From Candidatus Liptonbacteria bacterium (GTDB taxonomy: Bacteria; Patescibacteriota; Minisyncoccia; UBA6257; 2-01-FULL-56-20), in the NCBI GenBank assembly GCA_016204335.1, contig JACQKU010000011.1:541-64540 (forward strand): a DNA stretch of 64,000 bases, written 5' to 3'. The first letter of the stretch is position 1. Each line of letters starts with the position of its first letter. Shown in pieces: positions 8,960 to 46,222 of this stretch. Made by a program: the position numbers and the translations under genes. Under the pieces are notes generated by a model, which had not been told where the DNA came from, ran no database searches, and saw nothing but the letters and a program-made list of their open reading frames with translations.

Positions 8960-9514
8960 ATGAGCGAAACGCAAAAAACTTCCCGCCTCGGCGGTCTTTT
9001 AATAACTTCGACATCCGCCTGGGGTTTCGTGTGGTTTGTGAACGGCAATTTGGTCGGCTGGATGGAGAATTCTTTATGTTTTAAATATCTCGGCTGTAAT
9101 GTCGGCTTTTTCGGCTACGACGCCCTTGTTCATTTTCTTGCCGGAATAATGGAAGCAGTGTTTATTCTTTGGCTCGCGAAGAAATTTCCGAAGTTCGATT
9201 TTTTCTCCCAACCGAATACCGATTCTCCTCTTACGGAAAAAAACTTCCTGAAAAACGCTGTCACGCTCATAGCATTGGTCGCGTTGCTGAGCATCGGCTG
9301 GGAATTTTTGGAATTCGGTTATGACCAAGCAAGGATAAATGTATTCCATCACGACCTGCTATATCCGACCAACAGTTTGCGTCAAGCGGGCAACGCCGAC
9401 ACAATGGGCGATTTATTTTTCAGCCTGCTCGGCGCCGCGATTATGACAGTCGCGCCGAAATTTTTCGATAAAAAGCGCCTGACGGCAAACGCCGATAACT
9501 TAGAAAATATCTAA
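8960..9514 (+). CDS. Hypothetical integral membrane protein
   Basis: 184 aa, several hydrophobic segments; ATG start; no recognisable family. Confidence 0.5.
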   Translation: MSETQKTSRLGGLLITSTSAWGFVWFVNGNLVGWMENSLCFKYLGCNVGFFGYDALVHFLAGIMEAVFILWLAKKFPKFDFFSQPNTDSPLTEKNFLKNAVTLIALVALLSIGWEFLEFGYDQARINVFHHDLLYPTNSLRQAGNADTMGDLFFSLLGAAIMTVAPKFFDKKRLTANADNLENI

Positions 9515-10260
9515 TCTCTCTTTTTCTTCCCTTTCCGCCAAGAAACTCCCCGAAGCAAAGACGCGTATAAATCGTCTTTTGGATTGATGGATAACTCTTT
9601 CACTTCGCTGGAAGACGGATTGCGCGTTTGAAAATGAACGAATGGAACGTCTTCGATAAGCGCGAGGGGGGTTTGCTCGTTCCCTTCTCCAATTGCGAGA
9701 ACCGCCGCGGCGGCAAGCCCTTCGCTTACATTCGCTTTCGTCATTTTTAATTTTCTGCGGAATATGTCCGGCTTGCCGATATAATCGTTCAATGCCGAGA
9801 ATCCGCTATGGGCAAGTACGGTGCCGGTGGTACCCCACCGGAGCGGAGAAGTTCTGCTGTCGGTTATAATCACGCCGATATTTTTCTTCTTAAACCTCTT
9901 TGTCAGATAAACGCGGATTTCGTTCGCCGTTCGCCGTGAATCGCGCGGCCAGAGAATGTACGAGCCGTTGCCGTTCGATTCATCGACTCCAGCCGAAGGA
10001 ATCAGCATATTGTTCTTGATTGTCAGGATAACATTATATTTATTTTGCTTGAGCGGCAAAAAATAATCGGCCTCTTCCTCGATTAATTTCGTCTTATCAA
10101 CCGAATCAACCGGCGCTATCCTGCCCTCGCAGATAGAAACGATTTTTGAAGTCACTGCGAGAATTGACCGCTCAGGAATTTTTTTTACATAGCGGTCCAA
10201 AATATCGCACAGCTTCCGCCCTGGAACAATTTTATCGGTTTTGATTGGAGTTATTTTCAT
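9511..10260 (-). CDS. CofE-like gamma-glutamyl ligase (F420-0:gamma-glutamyl ligase family, PF01996)
   Basis: KIVSICEGRI, GVDESNGNGSYILWP, GVIITDSR...LAIGEG segments align with CofE family conserved blocks (from memory of A. fulgidus CofE). Confidence 0.7.
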   Translation of the reverse strand: MKITPIKTDKIVPGRKLCDILDRYVKKIPERSILAVTSKIVSICEGRIAPVDSVDKTKLIEEEADYFLPLKQNKYNVILTIKNNMLIPSAGVDESNGNGSYILWPRDSRRTANEIRVYLTKRFKKKNIGVIITDSRTSPLRWGTTGTVLAHSGFSALNDYIGKPDIFRRKLKMTKANVSEGLAAAAVLAIGEGNEQTPLALIEDVPFVHFQTRNPSSSEVKELSINPKDDLYASLLRGVSWRKGKKKRD

Positions 10261-10276
10261 AATTTTGCTTTACCAA

Positions 10277-10310
10277 AACATTCTAACATTCTGCAGAATG
10301 TTAGAATGTT
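10277..10310. repeat. 34-bp perfect palindrome AACATTCTAACATTCTG|CAGAATGTTAGAATGTT (intergenic copy of the HSNILQNVRM palindromic element)
   Basis: Self-complementary; same core as in-frame copies in purB (26790-26821) and purL (31818-31849); central CTGCAG. Confidence 0.9.
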
Positions 10311-10316
10311 ATATTT

Positions 10317-10847
10317 TCACTGAATTACATCGTAGCGCGACAAAAGTGTCCCCTGGCGATTGAGGCGGCGAACCGAAATAAGTTTTAAATTTTTAATCAT
10401 CTTGACGGGATGGACGATATTTTTTCCCGTACCGAAAATTTTCGGCTCCACTGTAAGACAGATATGTTGAATCAAGTTCGCTTTCAGAAATAAAGCGTTT
10501 ATTTCCCCTCCCCCCGCGACCAAAACTCTTTTATACTTTTGTCTTGAAAGGCGGCGGATAATCGCGCGTGGAGAATCGTTTGAAAATTCGAGCTGGCCGG
10601 GAATTTCGTATTTCCGATATTTTTGAGGATTGCGTGTCAAAATAATACGCAACCTTTCCGGAGAAAGCTTCATATACTTTTTCGCTGTCGCGTATGTTTG
10701 ACTGCCCATCACAATCGCGTCGCTTTCTTGAATAAGCCGCGCGAAATATTTTTTGTCGGCGACGGACGCCCATTCGGATGTACCCGACCGTGAACCGCGA
10801 GTAATCTTTCCGTCCACCGAAACGACTGCCGCGAGAATGGTCCTCAT
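10317..10847 (-). CDS. Dihydrofolate reductase-like / RibD C-terminal domain reductase
   Basis: 176 aa; ILAAVVSVDGKI...VMGSQTY...LVAGGGEINALFL pattern of RibD_C/DHFR family. Confidence 0.7.
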   Translation of the reverse strand: MRTILAAVVSVDGKITRGSRSGTSEWASVADKKYFARLIQESDAIVMGSQTYATAKKYMKLSPERLRIILTRNPQKYRKYEIPGQLEFSNDSPRAIIRRLSRQKYKRVLVAGGGEINALFLKANLIQHICLTVEPKIFGTGKNIVHPVKMIKNLKLISVRRLNRQGTLLSRYDVIQ

Positions 10848-20305: not shown

Positions 20306-20333
20306 TTAGTTAGTTGTGTAAGTTATACGCGCA

Positions 20334-20357
20334 GTGGTATGCTATAGCATACCACTC
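20334..20357. promoter_or_regulatory. 24-bp perfect palindrome AGTGGTATGCTATAGCATACCACT upstream of ahcY (putative operator)
   Basis: Self-complementary; shares GGTATGCTAT-GCATA core with the 41-bp repeats flanking the TrpR-like regulator. Confidence 0.5.
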
Positions 20358-20525
20358 ACAAACTCCCTTTCACCCTCACGCTCGGAGATTTCCCGTATTA
20401 TTAAACATAAAAAGCTACTTCATAAAATTCATATGTCCGGATGAACCTACCTCTGTATCTTGTTCACGTCCCGCGCTCCGAAAAACTTTAACACTATTGA
20501 CTATAAATTGACTATAATATGATGC

Positions 20526-20566
20526 CCGCTATGCCATAGCATAGCGGTATGCTATGGCATAGCGGG
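20526..20566. repeat. 41-bp palindromic repeat CCGCTATGCCATAGCATAGCGGTATGCTATGGCATAGCGGG, copy 1 (3' of regulator gene)
   Basis: Identical 41-mer also at 21112-21152; itself an imperfect palindrome built from GCTATG/CATAGC half-sites. Confidence 0.9.
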
Positions 20567-20574
20567 CGGAGAAA

Positions 20575-21093
20575 CTACTGTGGAATTGTAAACGTTCCGT
20601 ATTTTGTCCGCACCCTGCGTCCTGAAAAACCCCTCCCATTTCTCGACGACTGCGGGCCGGGCGAATATATTCTCTTCTTGCGTTCAGTTTTTCCCCGCTC
20701 ATAATAGCTCCTGTACTTTTTTTCGTTCAGCGCTTTTTTTATGCCGCTTATAGTCTGATGAGTAAGCCAAAGCTCTTCGCCGATTTTACGATAGCTCGTT
20801 CCTGCAAGAATGCGATCTATCGCGGCCGCCCGGCGCAGAAGAAGTGAACGCTCTTTGGCGGTAATAAGAAGTTCAAGTGCAGTCGAAAGTTTTTTCGGCT
20901 CTCGCAAAATTGTAAACTTTGCAATCAAAGTCCGCCAGACATTTTCTTCCCACGCTGAACGGGAAGAAAAACTTGCAAGGAGAGGTATACCACGAATCGC
21001 AGCCGCGGCCTCATTATTTCTCAGCTCTATTTTTTCTCCTGTTTTCTTCACGCGATTTTTTCTCCTGTTTTCTTCATCTCCTGTTTTCTTCAT
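20575..21093 (-). CDS. TrpR/YerC-family helix-turn-helix regulator with Lys/Arg-rich N- and C-terminal tails
   Basis: Central TAKERSLLLRRAAAIDRILAGTSYRKIGEELWLTHQTISGIKKAL resembles Trp-repressor/YerC HTH; 5' end contains three tandem copies of GAAAACAGGAG-ATG/GTG (RBS plus start); alternative in-frame GTG start at 21051. Confidence 0.6.
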   Translation of the reverse strand: MKKTGDEENRRKNRVKKTGEKIELRNNEAAAAIRGIPLLASFSSRSAWEENVWRTLIAKFTILREPKKLSTALELLITAKERSLLLRRAAAIDRILAGTSYRKIGEELWLTHQTISGIKKALNEKKYRSYYERGKTERKKRIYSPGPQSSRNGRGFSGRRVRTKYGTFTIPQ

Positions 21094-21111
21094 ATGATAG
21101 AGTATAGCATA

Positions 21112-21152
21112 CCGCTATGCCATAGCATAGCGGTATGCTATGGCATAGCGGG
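21112..21152. repeat. 41-bp palindromic repeat, copy 2 (immediately 5' of regulator gene start)
   Basis: Exact match to 20526-20566; ends 19 nt upstream of ATG 21093. Confidence 0.9.
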
Positions 21153-25986: not shown

Positions 25987-26085
25987 GTTTAGCTTATTAG
26001 GTTATTAGCTTACTAGATTTAGGCAATAAAAATTGTGATGTTCCAAAATCTTATTCTCTTATTCGCGCGAATAGGAAAATAAGAC

Positions 26086-27576
26086 CTATAACTCTCCACT
26101 CGCAAGTTTCTCGGCCAATCCGACATAGCTCTCCGGCGTGATTTTAAGGAGTTCTTCTTTTACTTGCGCCGACACATCGAGCCCGTTTATAAACGCCCGC
26201 ATGTCTTCAATCGTTACTGTTTTGCCGCGCGTGAGTACTTTCAGTTTTTCATACGGCATCGCAACGCCCTCGCGCCTTAAAACTGTTTGAATCGCCTCGG
26301 CGATGACTTCCGGATGAAGGTTCAAATCTTCGAGAACTTTTTCTTTGTTCGCTTGGATTCGCCCGAGTCCGTTCAAAAGATTTGCGTAAGCGACAACGGA
26401 ATGCGCGAGCGCAACGCCGAAATTCCGCTCCACCGTCGAATCGGAAAGGTCGCGCTGGAGGCGCGATATAGGCAGTTTCGACGAAAAATAACTAAATAAC
26501 GAATTCGCAATACCTAAATTTCCTTCACTATTTTCGAATTTTATCGGATTTATTTTGTGCGGCATCGTGGATGAGCCGATTTCCCCTTCGTTCGCTTTCT
26601 GCGCAATCCAGCCGTCGCTGATGTAGCGCCAGATATCCTGATTGAAATCAATGAGAATCGTATTTATGCGGCGGAGTAAATCGAAAAGTTCGACGTATGT
26701 GTCGTGCGGTTCGATTTGCGTCGTGAAAAGATTCGGTTCGAGCGTTATGGTTTTTTTTTGATTTTGCGCGGCTCCGCCCGCACCGGACGACATTCTCACA
26801 TTCTGCAGAATGTGAGAATGTTCCCGCAAGCGTGTGACGAAATTTTTCGTGAAATCAAGCCAATCAACTTCAGGATACGCAACAACATTCGCGCTGTAAT
26901 TGCCGGTTGCTCCGTTCAATTTGACGAGAATGCGGAATGAACGCAGTTGCCCGATTTGCCGTTCCAACCGCGCGGCAAAAACCTTGAATTCTTTCCCGAA
27001 TGTCGTAGGAGTCGCCGGCTGGCCGTGCGTCCGCGCGAGCATCGTCAAATTTTTATATTCTTTCGCGAATTCCTCCAATTTCGCGGTTATTTTTTCGAGA
27101 AGCGGCAGAATCACTTTTTCGATTCCGTCGCTCAACATAAGCCCGTAGGCAAGATTATCAATGTCTTCCGAAGTAAGCGCGAAATGAATCCATTCAAGGC
27201 AGTCCTTGAGAGAAGTATTCTCCAACTGGTCGCGCATAAAATATTCTATCGCTTTCACATCGTGGTCCGTGGCTTTGATATTTTTATATCCCGCTCGCTC
27301 GATGTCTTTTATGATTTTTGCATTCTCGAGCGTAAGTTCGGAAAGATTTCGAATCAATGATTTTTCCTCTTCGGAAAAATCGCGGAGGCCTGCCCGCTCA
27401 CCAAAATTTTTGGTGTGAGGGCCGATGTCGGGATGCTCGGACAGCGCGATAAGATATTCCGCTTCGACAAAAAGCCGATAGCGCATCATTCCCGCCTCGC
27501 TGAAAATCTTCGCGAGCGGTTCCGTATATTCCCTATATCGCCCGTCAATCGGGCTTATTGATTCGAGAAAATTCAT
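26086..27576 (-). CDS. purB: Adenylosuccinate lyase carrying an in-frame palindromic-element insertion
   Basis: 496 aa; fumarate-lyase signature GSSTMPHKINPIKFEN; about 24 extra residues (REHSHILQNVRMSSGAGGAAQNQKK) between conserved FVTRL and TTQIEPHD blocks relative to E. coli PurB (from memory). Confidence 0.9.
   Translation of the reverse strand: MNFLESISPIDGRYREYTEPLAKIFSEAGMMRYRLFVEAEYLIALSEHPDIGPHTKNFGERAGLRDFSEEEKSLIRNLSELTLENAKIIKDIERAGYKNIKATDHDVKAIEYFMRDQLENTSLKDCLEWIHFALTSEDIDNLAYGLMLSDGIEKVILPLLEKITAKLEEFAKEYKNLTMLARTHGQPATPTTFGKEFKVFAARLERQIGQLRSFRILVKLNGATGNYSANVVAYPEVDWLDFTKNFVTRLREHSHILQNVRMSSGAGGAAQNQKKTITLEPNLFTTQIEPHDTYVELFDLLRRINTILIDFNQDIWRYISDGWIAQKANEGEIGSSTMPHKINPIKFENSEGNLGIANSLFSYFSSKLPISRLQRDLSDSTVERNFGVALAHSVVAYANLLNGLGRIQANKEKVLEDLNLHPEVIAEAIQTVLRREGVAMPYEKLKVLTRGKTVTIEDMRAFINGLDVSAQVKEELLKITPESYVGLAEKLASGEL
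26790..26821. repeat. 32-bp perfect palindrome ACATTCTCACATTCTG|CAGAATGTGAGAATGT inside purB, in frame (encodes HSHILQNVRM)
   Basis: Self-complementary; differs from copy at 10277 by a compensatory pair (A>C with T>G) that preserves the palindrome. Confidence 0.9.
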
Positions 27577-31386: not shown

Positions 31387-34300
31387 TTAGTAATTCGCAA
31401 ATGTTGATTTGTATGCGGCAAGAATTTCGGGAAGCGGCAGTTTCATATTTTTCTTTTTCCTTCGTATCACGATTTTTTCCTGTTTCACGACCGAGCCGAT
31501 TTTCGCAAAGCTCGTTCCGGTCATTAATTTCTCGAATTTCCGCATATTTTCCGGCGCGACTGTCGCGATAATTCTCCCCTGGCTCTCGGAAAAAAGAGCC
31601 GTAGTGTCATTCGAAAATTTTCCGGGCAGTTTTTTGAGCGATACATCAAACCCGAGTTTTCCTCCCATCGCGGTCTTGCACAACGCGACCGCCAACCCTC
31701 CTTTCGAAACACTGATTGCGGAAGCGACAATCCCTTCGCGGACGCATTTCGAAAACGCCCGATAGAGTTTTCTGTTTTTCGCCGCATCCACGCACGGCAC
31801 CAAACTGTCGCAAAACGACATTCTAACATTCTGCAGAATATTAGAATGTTTTTTGTCGTCTATAAGTGATGCATATTCACTTCCTGCCATCTCGTCGTAC
31901 GTATTACCGAGCGCGTACACCAAATCGCCCGGGCATTTTGCGTCGAGCGATACCGTTTTTTCGGCGTCAGGCACCACGCCGATAGCGGAAATAAGGAGCG
32001 TCGGCGGCACTGAAATTTTTACCGGCTTGCCATCTTCGTCATATCCTTTGAAATCGTTGAACATCGAATCCTTGCCGGAAATGAACGGCGTTTCATAAGC
32101 GACCGCATAGTCGTAACATGCCTGCGCGGCGCGCTTGAGCTGATATAGCCGCTCCGGCTCGTTCGAACTGCACCAGCAAAAATTGTCGAGAAGCGCGATA
32201 TAATCCGGGTCGGCGCCCGCCGCGACAGCGCTCCGAATCGCCGTATCAATCGCGCATGCCGCCATTTTGTACGAATCGATTTCAGAATATGAAGGAGCGG
32301 CGCCGGAAGAAAGAACAATCGCTTTTTTTGAATCCAAAAGCGGCCGCACGGCCGACGCGTCCCCGTTCACTCTGCCTTTGCCCTGGAGCGGCTTCAAAAC
32401 GGAACCTGCCTGCACTTCATGGTCGTATTGCATCGATAAAAATTCGTAACTCGCGATATTCGGGCGCGCAAGCATATTTTTGATTGCGAGCGAAAGGTCG
32501 CGCGATTCTGTTTCAGCCGCTGACATACCAACAAACTCCAGTTTATAAGGATGTGTTTCTTTGGTGGCGAGGTGGCGGCGGGGCCAGCCGTCGTGCAAAA
32601 ACCCCAAATCCAAGTCCATTATTTTCTTTCCGCGATAGTTCACCGCGCACTTTCCCGATGAAGTAAATCTGCCGATAACAGTCGCTTCCACTCCCCGCTT
32701 TTCCAATAGCGAATGAAGCGCCGCCCATTTATTTTTCGGCACGGCGAGCGTCATCCGCTCCTGCGATTCGGAAATCCATATTTGCCACGGCGCGAGTCCC
32801 GGATACTTCAACGGGACTTTATCGAGAGCGACTTCGCATCCGTTCGATTCGCGCGCCATCTCCGCCACCGAACACGAAAGGCCGCCGGCGCCGTTATCCG
32901 TGATGCTGTTATACAATTTTTTATCCCGCGCTTCTTTCACAATCGCGTCGCTCAATTTTTTCTGCGTGATTGGGTCGCCGATTTGCACCGCGGTCGCCGG
33001 GCTTCCCGAATCAATCGCCTCGGAAGAAAATGTCGCTCCGTGAATGCCGTCTTGGCCGACACGGCCTCCGACCATCACGATATAGTCGCCGGGCTTGGCT
33101 TGTTTTTTATGCGACGGTTTTCCGGCCACGGTCCGCGGAATCAAACCGACGGTTCCCGCGAACACGAGCGGTTTTCCGCGATACCTTTTGTCGAACAGCA
33201 TAAATCCCTGCGGCGTCGGAATGCCCGAGCAATTGCCGCCGACATTCACTCCTTGAATTACGCCTTCCATAATGCGCCGCGCCGAGAGAATTTTTTCCTT
33301 CCGTTCCGCGTCGCGGTAAAAAACGCTTTTGTCGCCCGTTCGACCGGGCTCAGGGCGACCCTGAGTGGAATCGAATGGGTCGCGCGGGTCGGCCCCTCGA
33401 CGCGGCTCGGGGCAAGCGAAGCAAAATCCGTAGACATTCGCCACCGGCTTCGCGCCCAAGCCAAACCCGACTGTATCGCGATTCACGCCGAGAATTCCAG
33501 TGATGGCGCCGCCGAACGGGTCAAGCATCGAAGGAGCGTTGTGCGTTTCCACTTTGTGCGTGACGAGATGCTTATCGTCGAACGCAATCGCTCCGGAGTT
33601 GTCGGTGAACACCGAAACGCAGAAATCGCGCCTGCCTTTCTTTTTGCGGATTACATTCGTCGCCGCTTTGATGTAAGAGCGGTAAATTCCGTCTTTTATT
33701 TCATCGATGGGATTCGCGAAAATCGTATGCTTGCAGTGTTCCGACCACGTCTGCGCGAGCGATTCCAGTTCTATGTCGGTCGGCTTCCGCTTTTGACCAC
33801 GGAAATATTCCCTGATTGTTTTCATACTGTCGAGGTCGAGCGCCAACGGGCCGCGGCGGCTTCCGTCCGGATTCGCTATTCCCTCTTTCCCGATGCATGT
33901 TAACTCGCTGTCGTCAACATCAAGGTTTACAGTACCGACCGACACCGACGAAACGAGCGCAACTTTCGGCGCGCTGATTCCCATGCCGCCGTCTTTTTTG
34001 AATTGTTTGAAACTTTTTATCTCCGCGCGCTGAATCAGCGGATTATACAGAGTGTCTGCGACGCGACGCGCGTCCTCTTCCGACAATTTTCCGGAAAGGA
34101 AAAAAACCTGCGAAGAATATGTTCCTTGCCCGCTTTTGAATTTTTTTCCTAAAAAATCCTCGATTGTTTCTTTCGCGGTCGAGCCGATATTGTCGGTGAC
34201 GCCCGGCAAATATCCGACTTCTATCGCCCAGTCGAATTTCGCCGGCGCCTGATTTTGATTTACGGTTGCGCGTTCCACAAGCGGATTCTCCAGAAGCCGC

Positions 34301-34467
34301 GCGACCGCCTGCAACTGCGAACTGGTAAGATTCGCGTCAATGATATACGAATCAACCAAATCCACGGATTTCACATTTCCATTGAAACCGATGCTTTCGA
34401 GATGCCGGAGTTTTACCGCGGCTCGAGTATCGGGAACTTTGTATTTTATATCGATACGGGCGGGCAT
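31387..34467 (-). CDS. purL: PurS-PurS-PurL fusion: FGAM synthase II with tandem N-terminal PurS-like domains and two in-frame repeat-element insertions
   Basis: 1026 aa; two ~85-aa PurS-like repeats then PurL core (ETHNAPSMLDPFGGAITGILGVNRD...); insertions at 31818-31849 and ~33335-33425. Confidence 0.85.
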   Translation of the reverse strand: MPARIDIKYKVPDTRAAVKLRHLESIGFNGNVKSVDLVDSYIIDANLTSSQLQAVARLLENPLVERATVNQNQAPAKFDWAIEVGYLPGVTDNIGSTAKETIEDFLGKKFKSGQGTYSSQVFFLSGKLSEEDARRVADTLYNPLIQRAEIKSFKQFKKDGGMGISAPKVALVSSVSVGTVNLDVDDSELTCIGKEGIANPDGSRRGPLALDLDSMKTIREYFRGQKRKPTDIELESLAQTWSEHCKHTIFANPIDEIKDGIYRSYIKAATNVIRKKKGRRDFCVSVFTDNSGAIAFDDKHLVTHKVETHNAPSMLDPFGGAITGILGVNRDTVGFGLGAKPVANVYGFCFACPEPRRGADPRDPFDSTQGRPEPGRTGDKSVFYRDAERKEKILSARRIMEGVIQGVNVGGNCSGIPTPQGFMLFDKRYRGKPLVFAGTVGLIPRTVAGKPSHKKQAKPGDYIVMVGGRVGQDGIHGATFSSEAIDSGSPATAVQIGDPITQKKLSDAIVKEARDKKLYNSITDNGAGGLSCSVAEMARESNGCEVALDKVPLKYPGLAPWQIWISESQERMTLAVPKNKWAALHSLLEKRGVEATVIGRFTSSGKCAVNYRGKKIMDLDLGFLHDGWPRRHLATKETHPYKLEFVGMSAAETESRDLSLAIKNMLARPNIASYEFLSMQYDHEVQAGSVLKPLQGKGRVNGDASAVRPLLDSKKAIVLSSGAAPSYSEIDSYKMAACAIDTAIRSAVAAGADPDYIALLDNFCWCSSNEPERLYQLKRAAQACYDYAVAYETPFISGKDSMFNDFKGYDEDGKPVKISVPPTLLISAIGVVPDAEKTVSLDAKCPGDLVYALGNTYDEMAGSEYASLIDDKKHSNILQNVRMSFCDSLVPCVDAAKNRKLYRAFSKCVREGIVASAISVSKGGLAVALCKTAMGGKLGFDVSLKKLPGKFSNDTTALFSESQGRIIATVAPENMRKFEKLMTGTSFAKIGSVVKQEKIVIRRKKKNMKLPLPEILAAYKSTFANY
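31818..31849. repeat. 32-bp palindrome ACATTCTAACATTCTG|CAGAATATTAGAATGT inside purL, in frame (encodes HSNILQNVRM), one mismatch
   Basis: Core 31819-31848 identical to intergenic copy except G>A at 31840. Confidence 0.9.
33335..33425. repeat. GC-rich palindromic element inserted in frame in purL (encodes CPEPRRGADPRDPFDSTQGRPEPGRTGDK)
   Basis: About 75% GC stretch with stems GTCGCCC...GGGCGAC and CTCAGGG-cga-CCCTGAG in a gene otherwise about 50% GC; region between PurL conserved MGAKP and GGNC blocks is about 35 aa longer than in B. subtilis/T. maritima PurL (from memory). Confidence 0.6.
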
Positions 34468-46192: not shown

Positions 46193-46222
46193 CGAGCCGC
46201 TATGACGCGTCATAGCGGCTCG
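46193..46222. promoter_or_regulatory. 30-bp perfect palindrome CGAGCCGCTATGACGCGTCATAGCGGCTCG downstream of pth
   Basis: Self-complementary; CCGCTATG...CATAGCGG half-sites identical to those of the 41-bp regulator-flanking repeat. Confidence 0.6.

Follow-up and report, generated by a model that had tools for sequence, protein, structure and literature searches.

What does a perfect palindrome do between two co-directional genes, when close copies of it are translated within two enzymes encoded on the same stretch of DNA? We addressed this question for positions 10277-10310 of a 64-kb stretch (1-64000) of a Candidatus Liptonbacteria contig, called the window hereafter and to which all coordinates refer. 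This lineage is part of the Candidate Phyla Radiation (CPR, or Patescibacteria), which makes up a large share of bacterial diversity and whose gene regulation and mobile DNA are almost unexplored. Our results point to a 34-mer that is probably two things at once: a non-autonomous mobile palindrome of 34-36 bp found CPR-wide, reminiscent of repetitive extragenic palindromes (REPs) and of Rickettsia palindromic elements (RPEs), and the operator of a conserved winged helix-turn-helix (wHTH) protein. An initial annotation of the locus had opposed these two roles, taking the element for a dispersed repeat rather than a regulatory site. Judged from the sequence comparisons reported here, this is a false dichotomy: in all likelihood, the element moves and also serves as a wHTH operator.

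Results

Three recent insertions in a purine gene cluster

The palindrome at 10277-10310 (AACATTCTAACATTCTGCAGAATGTTAGAATGTT) pairs at 17/17 positions, and each of its arms consists of two tandem 8-mers set around a central GC, in the architecture (AACATTCT)x2-GC-(AGAATGTT)x2. It fills most of a 56-nt spacer (10261-10316) between two co-directional genes of the minus strand (Table 1). Read on the sense strand, the stop codon of the DHFR-like gene lies 6 nt upstream of the palindrome, and the ATG of the CofE-like gene, a member of the F420-0:gamma-glutamyl ligase family, 16 nt downstream. The initial annotation had described exactly this layout, a perfect 34-bp intergenic palindrome in a 56-bp spacer between co-directional CofE-like and DHFR-like genes, and the sequence agrees with it in every detail. 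Its statement that the element is found in both intergenic and in-frame coding contexts is equally correct. With up to three mismatches allowed, exactly three matches to the 34-mer are present in the window, versus 0.00 expected from 100 dinucleotide shuffles; besides the intergenic one, these are the copies in purB and purL, which are translated in one shared frame (HS[HN]ILQNVRMS). The next-best match has 11 mismatches, so the window holds no half-decayed copies of this family, hereafter family A. A relaxed pattern search additionally disclosed a family B (consensus AACATCCTTACAAACTCCAGTTTGTAAGGATGTT), which three compensated pairs separate from family A and of which purL contains a decayed copy.

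The neighbourhood of the three copies can be compared with that of four relatives (L120-L123, PurB 77-78% identical) sharing the gene order purL...purB...Vut_1, DHFR-like, F420_ligase. Neither a family-A nor a family-B palindrome was found in 14-21 kb of these relatives. In L120 and L121, the aligned DHFR-like stop overlaps the CofE-like start (ATGA; GTAATGAAATGAGAATT), at the place where the window carries an extra segment. In the same way, the 21-residue insert of the window PurB is missing both from more distantly related PurB proteins and from five whose identity to the window protein is 81-83% in a multiple alignment and 76-80% in pairwise BLASTP comparisons, and the purL insert is missing from the L120 gene. 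Another PurB (P0128) has independently gained an insert (KEHSHILENVRM), which lies in another loop. Since the syntenic purine cluster of the relatives lacks all three copies, these alignments indicate that all three are recent insertions, gained at new positions over a short evolutionary time. The intergenic copy is flanked on both sides by TGAAAATA, a possible 8-bp duplication that is a property of this copy alone and not a general one. It was initially presented as the master copy, a status that the comparison does not bear out: it is the least mutated of three recent insertions and carries no mark of a source.

The 34-mer is dispersed across the CPR

We scanned one genome per prokaryotic species for the exact pattern ATTCTNACATTCTGCAGAATNTNAGAAT (25 specified bases). 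The locus counts (119) and copy counts (141 strict, 186) given in this work are those among the matches listed and have to be read as minimal values. At least 119 loci carry the 34-mer pattern, nearly all of them in metagenome-assembled genomes of the CPR that belong to many classes and stem from many unrelated studies. The hosts include Saccharibacteria, Parcubacteria lineages and Lipton-, Giovannoni-, Sungi-, Taylor-, Nomura-, Jorgensen-, Harrison-, Brenner-, Moran- and Doudnabacteria; a few bins bear non-CPR labels. Neither the 2.9 million viral contigs searched nor the 72,556 plasmids of PLSDB yielded a copy. The density reaches 3 copies per 64 kb in the window and about one extra copy per 40 kb in the listed loci. 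With relaxed patterns, the centre varies between TGCA, TCAA/TTGA, TTAA and TATA, as expected of a loop or spacer, and a CC/GG variant (ATTCC...GGAAT) also exists.

The genes next to the copies have little in common. Among the 71 genes directly downstream of listed copies, 92 Pfam families are represented, each by two genes at most, and no conserved regulon was found. Intergenic copies are placed between co-directional (85), convergent (17) and divergent (7) gene pairs. Together with the empty sites in relatives, this spread over unrelated neighbours establishes the dispersed repeat that the initial annotation had proposed. It also does away with the condition under which the annotation would have favoured a regulator binding site, namely only three copies genome-wide, all near purine or folate genes.

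A palindrome of this kind calls for a check on its reality, as perfect palindromes with a central restriction site (here CTGCAG) can arise in libraries, and an adapter, a linker or an inverted duplication made by the assembly might be suspected. The copies nevertheless stem from numerous projects and assemblers that have no link with each other, are nearly confined to CPR bins and lie in mid-contig; they keep long open reading frames (ORFs) in frame, and they occur as natural variants and decayed relics. We consider the probability of an artefact to be negligible.

Translated copies share one frame and the two arms covary

Among the 141 strict copies, 16 lie well inside ORFs of at least 190 aa, all of which encode housekeeping proteins: PurB, PurL, TPI, PGK, Tgt, TruB, MnmA, TsaC, HemK (three copies), YchF (two copies) and an FAD-oxidase-like protein. 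All 16 are read as [KQE]HS[NHD]ILQNVRM. A second open frame (NILTFCRMLEC) is confined to short, doubtful ORFs and the third contains stops. Given two open frames, a 16:0 bias has by simple arithmetic a chance probability of about 1.5e-5, which argues that selection on the encoded peptide filters insertions.

A second constraint acts on the nucleic acid. The pair formed by positions 9 and 26 is of the Watson-Crick type in 127/141 copies, against 58.7 expected, and is found as A/T (76), C/G (32), G/C (14) or T/A (5), with variants that differ within single genomes, including in the window. Its covariation score is 0.164 versus 0.102 +/- 0.006 after shuffling, a value as high being obtained in 0/500 shuffles. 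In coding copies, position 26 is the synonymous third position of a Val codon and still complements position 9, which indicates a constraint on nucleic acid and not on protein. Outside the 34-mer, conservation of the flanks is limited to an A at -2 and a T at +2 (69% each). In some copies, complementary bases of their own lengthen the palindrome, but the overall pairing beyond positions 0/35 is at expectation.

Signatures of conventional transposition were not observed. Target-site duplications (2-8 nt, offsets 0-2, 186 copies) do not exceed the shuffled expectation, and an ATTTTGC common to the edges of two window inserts is not general across copies. No autonomous insertion sequence (IS) with matching terminal inverted repeats was seen in 825 kb of loci, nor did an all-against-all clustering of 961 ORFs from the 119 listed loci yield a recurrent transposase.

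HemK proteins of the CPR are informative on the fate of translated copies, as perfect, intermediate and native versions coexist at one position and form a gain/decay series. Of 120 HemK/PrmC homologues (P0241-P0360), 13 carry a near-perfect palindrome peptide and about 10 an intermediate one at this same position; copies of the element in HemK genes are those at L044 5999, L110 1176 and L111 4989. The palindrome peptide (HSDILQNVRMSFD) takes exactly the place of HSDLFKNIxGKFD, the motif native to the CPR that immediately precedes NLPY, with zero length change, and the conserved Asp is supplied by the G/C variant at 9/26. In YchF and TPI, the net gain at the palindrome peptide is merely +1 to +8 residues. 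Simple insertion is thus an incomplete account: either later deletions restore the loop length, or conversion installs patches.

Could the element exert its effect as RNA, whether by terminating transcription intrinsically, by being processed (for instance by RNase III) or by stabilising 3' ends between the two genes? Its single strand folds into a stable hairpin with a 15-bp stem and a 4-nt loop (RNA -19.6 kcal/mol, z -4.5; DNA -13.3 kcal/mol, z -7.6), and the 9/26 covariation could be a trace of RNA pairing. Besides, copies are nearer to the upstream stop (median 19 nt) than to the downstream start (54 nt), convergent placements are 2.4 times as frequent as divergent ones, and the plus-strand (antisense) orientation at 10277-10310 scores terminator-like. 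However, the sense-strand tail (UUGGUAAAGC) has no U-tract and only 4 of the 15 stem pairs are G-C, while at least 16 copies lie in essential ORFs, in which a transcript that is ended or cut would do harm; on these grounds, the terminator role suggested in the initial annotation appears weak. Mismatches in the sense-RNA stem are more often A.C than G.U (40 vs 24), the opposite of what RNA pairing predicts, and the stop-proximal bias results largely from the copies located 3' of the wHTH gene described below. Rfam has no match to offer either: searches at gathering thresholds for the whole window and at E<=10 for the local region returned only meaningless microRNA-hairpin matches. An RNA-level role is therefore improbable in our estimation.

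A wHTH gene is bracketed by the palindrome

Only one gene family recurs in the palindrome loci (36/119 listed). It encodes a protein of about 88 aa (MKTxKQLERYFKGAANHRRI.IL…NFKTISQHTRSLVQAGLLNKKYRGRQV.HSLSPYG…), an example being MBI2639976.1 with 88 aa, and the flanks of many copies encode its C-terminus, SPYGKxFLKFMKTF-stop, in such a way that the TAA stop codon falls within the palindrome (K-T-F-stop). Pfam assigns the protein to HTH_5 (ArsR) with an E-value of 3.6e-6. Its AlphaFold model (pLDDT 86.5) has the topology a1-a2-a3-aR-b1-b2-a5, and Foldseek places MarR-family regulators at ranks 1-3, followed by CzrA, SmtB, CadC, HlyU and ArsR with a probability of 1.00; MarR-family structures fit the model as well as those of ArsR/SmtB and some rank above them. 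Searches with PADLOC and PHROGs returned generic wHTH matches only. Clustering of the family gives at least 1,211 groups at 90% identity, which bear no other names than 'HTH/MarR/ArsR transcriptional regulator' or 'hypothetical', and 156 groups at 50% identity (E<=1e-10).

The two ends of the gene are occupied by different versions of the palindrome. On the 5' side, the CC/GG variant (AACATTCCAACATTCTGCAGAATGTTGGAATGTT) ends at a median of 26 nt before the ATG. Its TTGGAA occupies the -35 position, with a -10-like hexamer at a spacing of 15-19 nt in 15/23 cases, as exemplified by the TATAAT found 17 nt from TTGGAA in L070 and L086. On the 3' side, the standard family-A variant covers the stop codon. 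These bracketing copies are the only ones with a fixed genomic home. In addition, a wHTH paralogue in L009 (5185-5490; NEKTIGEHTRRLYQAGLLDKKYKGKFVEHKLSPYG) is bracketed by family-B palindromes, and those in L090, L076 and L062 are each bracketed by yet other palindromes. Because protein and site co-vary among paralogues and the layout has an autoregulatory geometry, we infer that the wHTH protein binds the palindrome. Within the same loci, wHTH proteins are as conserved as YchF (median pairwise identity 65% vs 60%), which would explain how a 34-bp site stays constant across the radiation: its sequence may be held by the need to be recognised by a conserved wHTH, in keeping with an operator function.

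As to the dispersed copies, -10 boxes are not enriched beside them, and the right spacing is limited to the TTGGAA variant of the wHTH promoter. This lack of correctly spaced -10 boxes argues against a promoter function for dispersed copies.

The wHTH gene has no conserved neighbour or operon partner in the listed loci. A PIF1-like helicase, in some cases with a C-terminal WYL domain, is encoded about 0.1-1.5 kb from it in nine loci (L002, L004, L019, L048, L050, L052, L062, L070 and L094) and is the only other family enriched there. A TspO gene is found near it in 4-6 loci, which is suggestive only.

An autoregulated repressor invites the view that the copies are immobile operators of a CPR global regulator, which arose or were kept in place for useful repression, here of purine and folate genes. 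The three window copies do lie in a purine/folate cluster, the wHTH is of the ArsR/SmtB repressor type with an autoregulatory site, and the HemK site occupies the same codon positions in several lineages with unchanged length. Yet orthologous positions are empty in relatives that have the same cluster, and point mutation is implausible as the origin of identical 34-bp sequences at many sites. Moreover, the downstream genes share no function, dispersed copies have no -10 box at promoter spacing, and convergent as well as divergent placements occur. These contradictions make an immobile regulon quite unlikely.

[quoted passage not shown] Such a palindrome would be moved by a transposase or by template switching during replication, it would have no protein partner, and the wHTH would be an ordinary autoregulated host regulator, the flanks of whose gene happen to be favoured insertion sites. 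It is in line with the empty sites in relatives, the unrelated contexts of the copies, the HemK decay series, the decayed family-B relic in purL and an arm-to-arm covariation as known from hairpin-recognised elements. What it leaves unexplained is the systematic presence of the 5' CC/GG variant with TTGGAA as -35 box, which hot-spot insertion does not account for, as well as the different palindromes at both ends of paralogous wHTH genes. Nor does it explain why the 34-mer is identical in classes between which YchF identity is only ~60%, and no transposase family recurs in the 119 listed loci.

Other features of the window and of the palindrome loci

The features discussed above are collected in Table 1. 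In purL, which thus holds two palindromic elements (family A and decayed family B), the linker around 32522-32555 is also of different length in the relative L120. Directly 3' of the purB stop lies a terminator-like near-palindrome of 36 bp (26049-26084, TCTTATTCTCTTATTCGCGAATAGGAAAATAAGA), with TTTT behind it on the sense strand; it consists of tandem 8-mers as in family A and resembles a sequence at position 4094 of L048. The window PurB is 100% identical to MBI4085969.1, and beyond close CPR relatives its best matches include DPANN archaea (Nanoarchaeota, Pacearchaeota and Woesearchaeota) at ~60-62% identity. A contig labelled Pacearchaeota (L042) has both the wHTH gene and the palindrome, by cross-domain exchange or mis-binning.

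Table 1. Positions of the palindrome copies, their host or flanking genes and the inserted segments in the window
Feature	Position	Strand	Remarks
CofE-like gene (F420-0:gamma-glutamyl ligase family)	9511..10260	-	Pfam F420_ligase 1e-34
60-nt extra segment (10 + 34 + 16 nt)	10261..10320	-	missing in L120/L121 (alignment)
Family-A palindrome, perfect	10277..10310	.	15-bp stem + 4-nt loop as hairpin
RibD_C/DHFR-like gene	10317..10847	-	Pfam RibD_C 2e-19, DHFR_1 3e-8
purB	26086..27576	-	
63-nt (21-codon) purB insertion	26764..26826	-	REHSHILQNVRMSSGAGGAAQ; missing in relatives' PurB
Family-A copy in purB	26789..26822	.	read EHSHILQNVRMS; 3 mismatches, including the compensated A9C/T26G pair (C/G variant at 9/26)
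purL	31387..34467	-	
36-nt (12-codon) purL insertion	31816..31851	-	KHSNILQNVRMS; versus L120 purL, 77% identical
Family-A copy in purL	31817..31850	.	read KHSNILQNVRMS; 2 mismatches
Decayed family-B copy in purL	32522..32555	.	read THPYKLEFVGMS

Elsewhere in the window, a 172-aa Trp-repressor-like HTH gene (20575-21093, minus strand; Pfam PF01371 with E 2e-5, which does not reach the gathering score) lies between two copies of a long palindrome, CCGCTATGCCATAGCATA-NNNN-TATGCTATGGCATAGCGG, at 20524-20567 on its 3' side and at 21104-21151 on its 5' side; a third copy, at 20333-20356, is partial. This layout, an HTH gene between its own cognate palindromes, is the same as in the wHTH/34-mer system. 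A perfect 30-bp palindrome at 46193-46222 (CGAGCCGCTATGACGCGTCATAGCGGCTCG) has CCGCTATG in common with the palindrome of the Trp-repressor-like gene. No Rfam family, those of tRNA and rRNA included, reaches its gathering score in the whole 64 kb.

In the loci of other genomes, a second small palindrome (GAATACGCCA-N6-TGGCGTATT) abuts the 34-mer at L028 (~950-965), L055 (~850-875) and L112 (~2250-2275), which suggests that several CPR palindromic families cluster or insert side by side. Host proteins of L044 and L056 contain other repeat-like peptide inserts (LPRSDAFARNDI, IPRLASLARNDGG, IPRLRSDHGRSSARNDW) resembling translated dispersed repeats. Finally, six loci (L029, L053, L060, L076, L100 and L101) encode a TraG/VirD4-like coupling-protein homologue (DUF87/T4SS-DNA_transf), which adjoins multiple copies of a ~590-aa Cys-rich protein without a Pfam match.

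Discussion

The reading that we favour, a mobile palindrome that also serves as the operator of a wHTH protein, suggests the following course of events at the locus. The copy at 10277-10310 split a formerly overlapping DHFR-like/CofE-like pair, and sister copies entered loops of PurB and PurL. With the ATGA overlap, the insertion also removed the probable translational coupling of the two genes. A stable hairpin and a probable wHTH-bound roadblock located 16 nt upstream of the CofE-like start could then damp the expression of this gene or make it regulatable. A selected function at this position is nonetheless less likely than near-neutral persistence. As for the origin of the copies, new ones may derive from old ones through a hairpin or cruciform intermediate, one arm of which serves as the template for the other or for its correction, with no target-site duplication. 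Arm-to-arm complementarity at an unread position indeed points to a hairpin or cruciform stage in copying or repair. The PIF1-like helicase is a candidate for the copying enzyme, as a lead only.

Several observations weigh against this reading and deserve to be put together. The wHTH gene itself is missing from the 64-kb window (tblastn), and its conservation at the level of YchF is as compatible with a core regulator of ancient origin as with a selfish element. The case for binding is built from gene layout and co-variation, and a symmetric dimer does not by itself explain the complementarity at an unread position. In the same vein, mobility is deduced from presence/absence comparisons, with no transposase, target-site duplication or parent element found. 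The window inserts are of unequal length (+60, +63 and +36 nt), and the peptide in HemK, YchF and TPI replaces native residues with a net change of 0 to +8, so that simple cut-and-paste is inadequate for either.

At a larger scale, we tentatively envisage an ancient 'mobile operator' common to the CPR, a possibility that we hold with clearly less confidence than the dual role of the 34-mer. It would consist of an ArsR-type wHTH with a self-copying 34-bp site, whose set of targets is rewired by insertion. The pairs of protein and palindrome that paralogy has produced (A, B and others) would make up networks that run in parallel and are insulated from each other. The placing of an HTH gene between its own palindromes, encountered again with the Trp-repressor-like gene, would be general in the CPR. 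If this holds true, the targets of a repressor are continually rewired by insertion and not by point mutation, including into loops of essential enzymes in one tolerated frame.

Besides, this work offers a directly testable pair of regulator and operator, predicted as such, with an 88-aa protein and a known site. The 34-mer would be a natural marker of recent change in genomes thought to be static and streamlined, and its insertions would explain some puzzling short insertions in CPR proteins. As a portable operator/repressor, the pair might provide a genetic handle in the few cultivable Saccharibacteria. The mobilising activity, if found, may be a new way to move very short DNA without target duplication.

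Comparison with known systems

In the searchable literature, we found no description of the 34-mer or of a comparable palindromic or MITE-type element in the CPR. What appears to be new is a combination that we did not find reported: a 34-mer that is constant throughout a superphylum, a wHTH partner whose paralogues each have their own palindromes, and coding insertions in a single frame. Each part of it nevertheless has counterparts.

The closest parallels are perhaps with REP/RAYT systems (REPtrons) of proteobacteria, where REP-associated tyrosine transposases (RAYTs) accompany REPs, which are defined by a GT[AG]G head motif. Both are short dispersed stem-loop palindromes with a covarying stem and no target-site duplication, both include a small dedicated gene between cognate palindromes, and in both paralogues go with different palindrome families. 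However, the bracketed gene encodes here a ~90-aa ArsR-fold wHTH without HUH/Y1 domain, whereas RAYTs are Y1 transposases. REPs are extragenic, while 16 copies of the 34-mer are translated in frame within long ORFs, and they are conserved in a species group versus superphylum-wide for the 34-mer.

DNA uptake sequences and uptake signal sequences (DUS/USS) of Neisseriaceae and Pasteurellaceae are motifs of 10-12 bp (~29 bp when extended) that occur about once per kb in naturally competent hosts and rely on a surface receptor. They are sequence-constant, often form inverted pairs after genes and are also present inside ORFs with a frame bias. The 34-mer shares with them a constant motif that also occurs within ORFs with a reading-frame bias, but its density is ~1 per 20-40 kb and its associated protein is a cytoplasmic-type wHTH.

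Correia elements of Neisseria are non-autonomous repeats with IHF sites that are able to alter the expression of neighbouring genes (PMC10969869). Similarly to these and to MITEs, the 34-mer would be a non-autonomous repeat that spreads a binding site, here a predicted one, for a host DNA-binding protein. These elements differ by their terminal inverted repeats around an internal segment, their target-site duplications and their parent IS, none of which was found for the 34-mer. RPEs, of ~100-150 bp, are located in frame in protein genes, where they encode an extra surface peptide (PMC10969869). The likeness lies in palindromic, selfish-looking DNA that is present in frame in housekeeping genes with a constant reading frame (PMC10969869). 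Size and host, and not a sequence comparison, set them apart: RPEs comprise ten families restricted to Rickettsia, whereas the 34-mer is 34-36 bp long, CPR-wide and tied to the gene of a DNA-binding protein.

Finally, ArsR/SmtB regulators and their 12-2-12 operators resemble the wHTH/34-mer pair by the fold and size of the protein, by a palindrome over its own promoter and by half-sites around a 2-bp centre. In contrast, the 34-mer is a 16-2-16 site with two tandem 8-mers per arm, and a second copy covers the stop codon. Metal-sensing residues and a cognate efflux gene were not seen either, though no analysis was directed at them. ArsR/SmtB operators are immobile, while copies of the 34-mer are scattered by insertion, including into ORFs.

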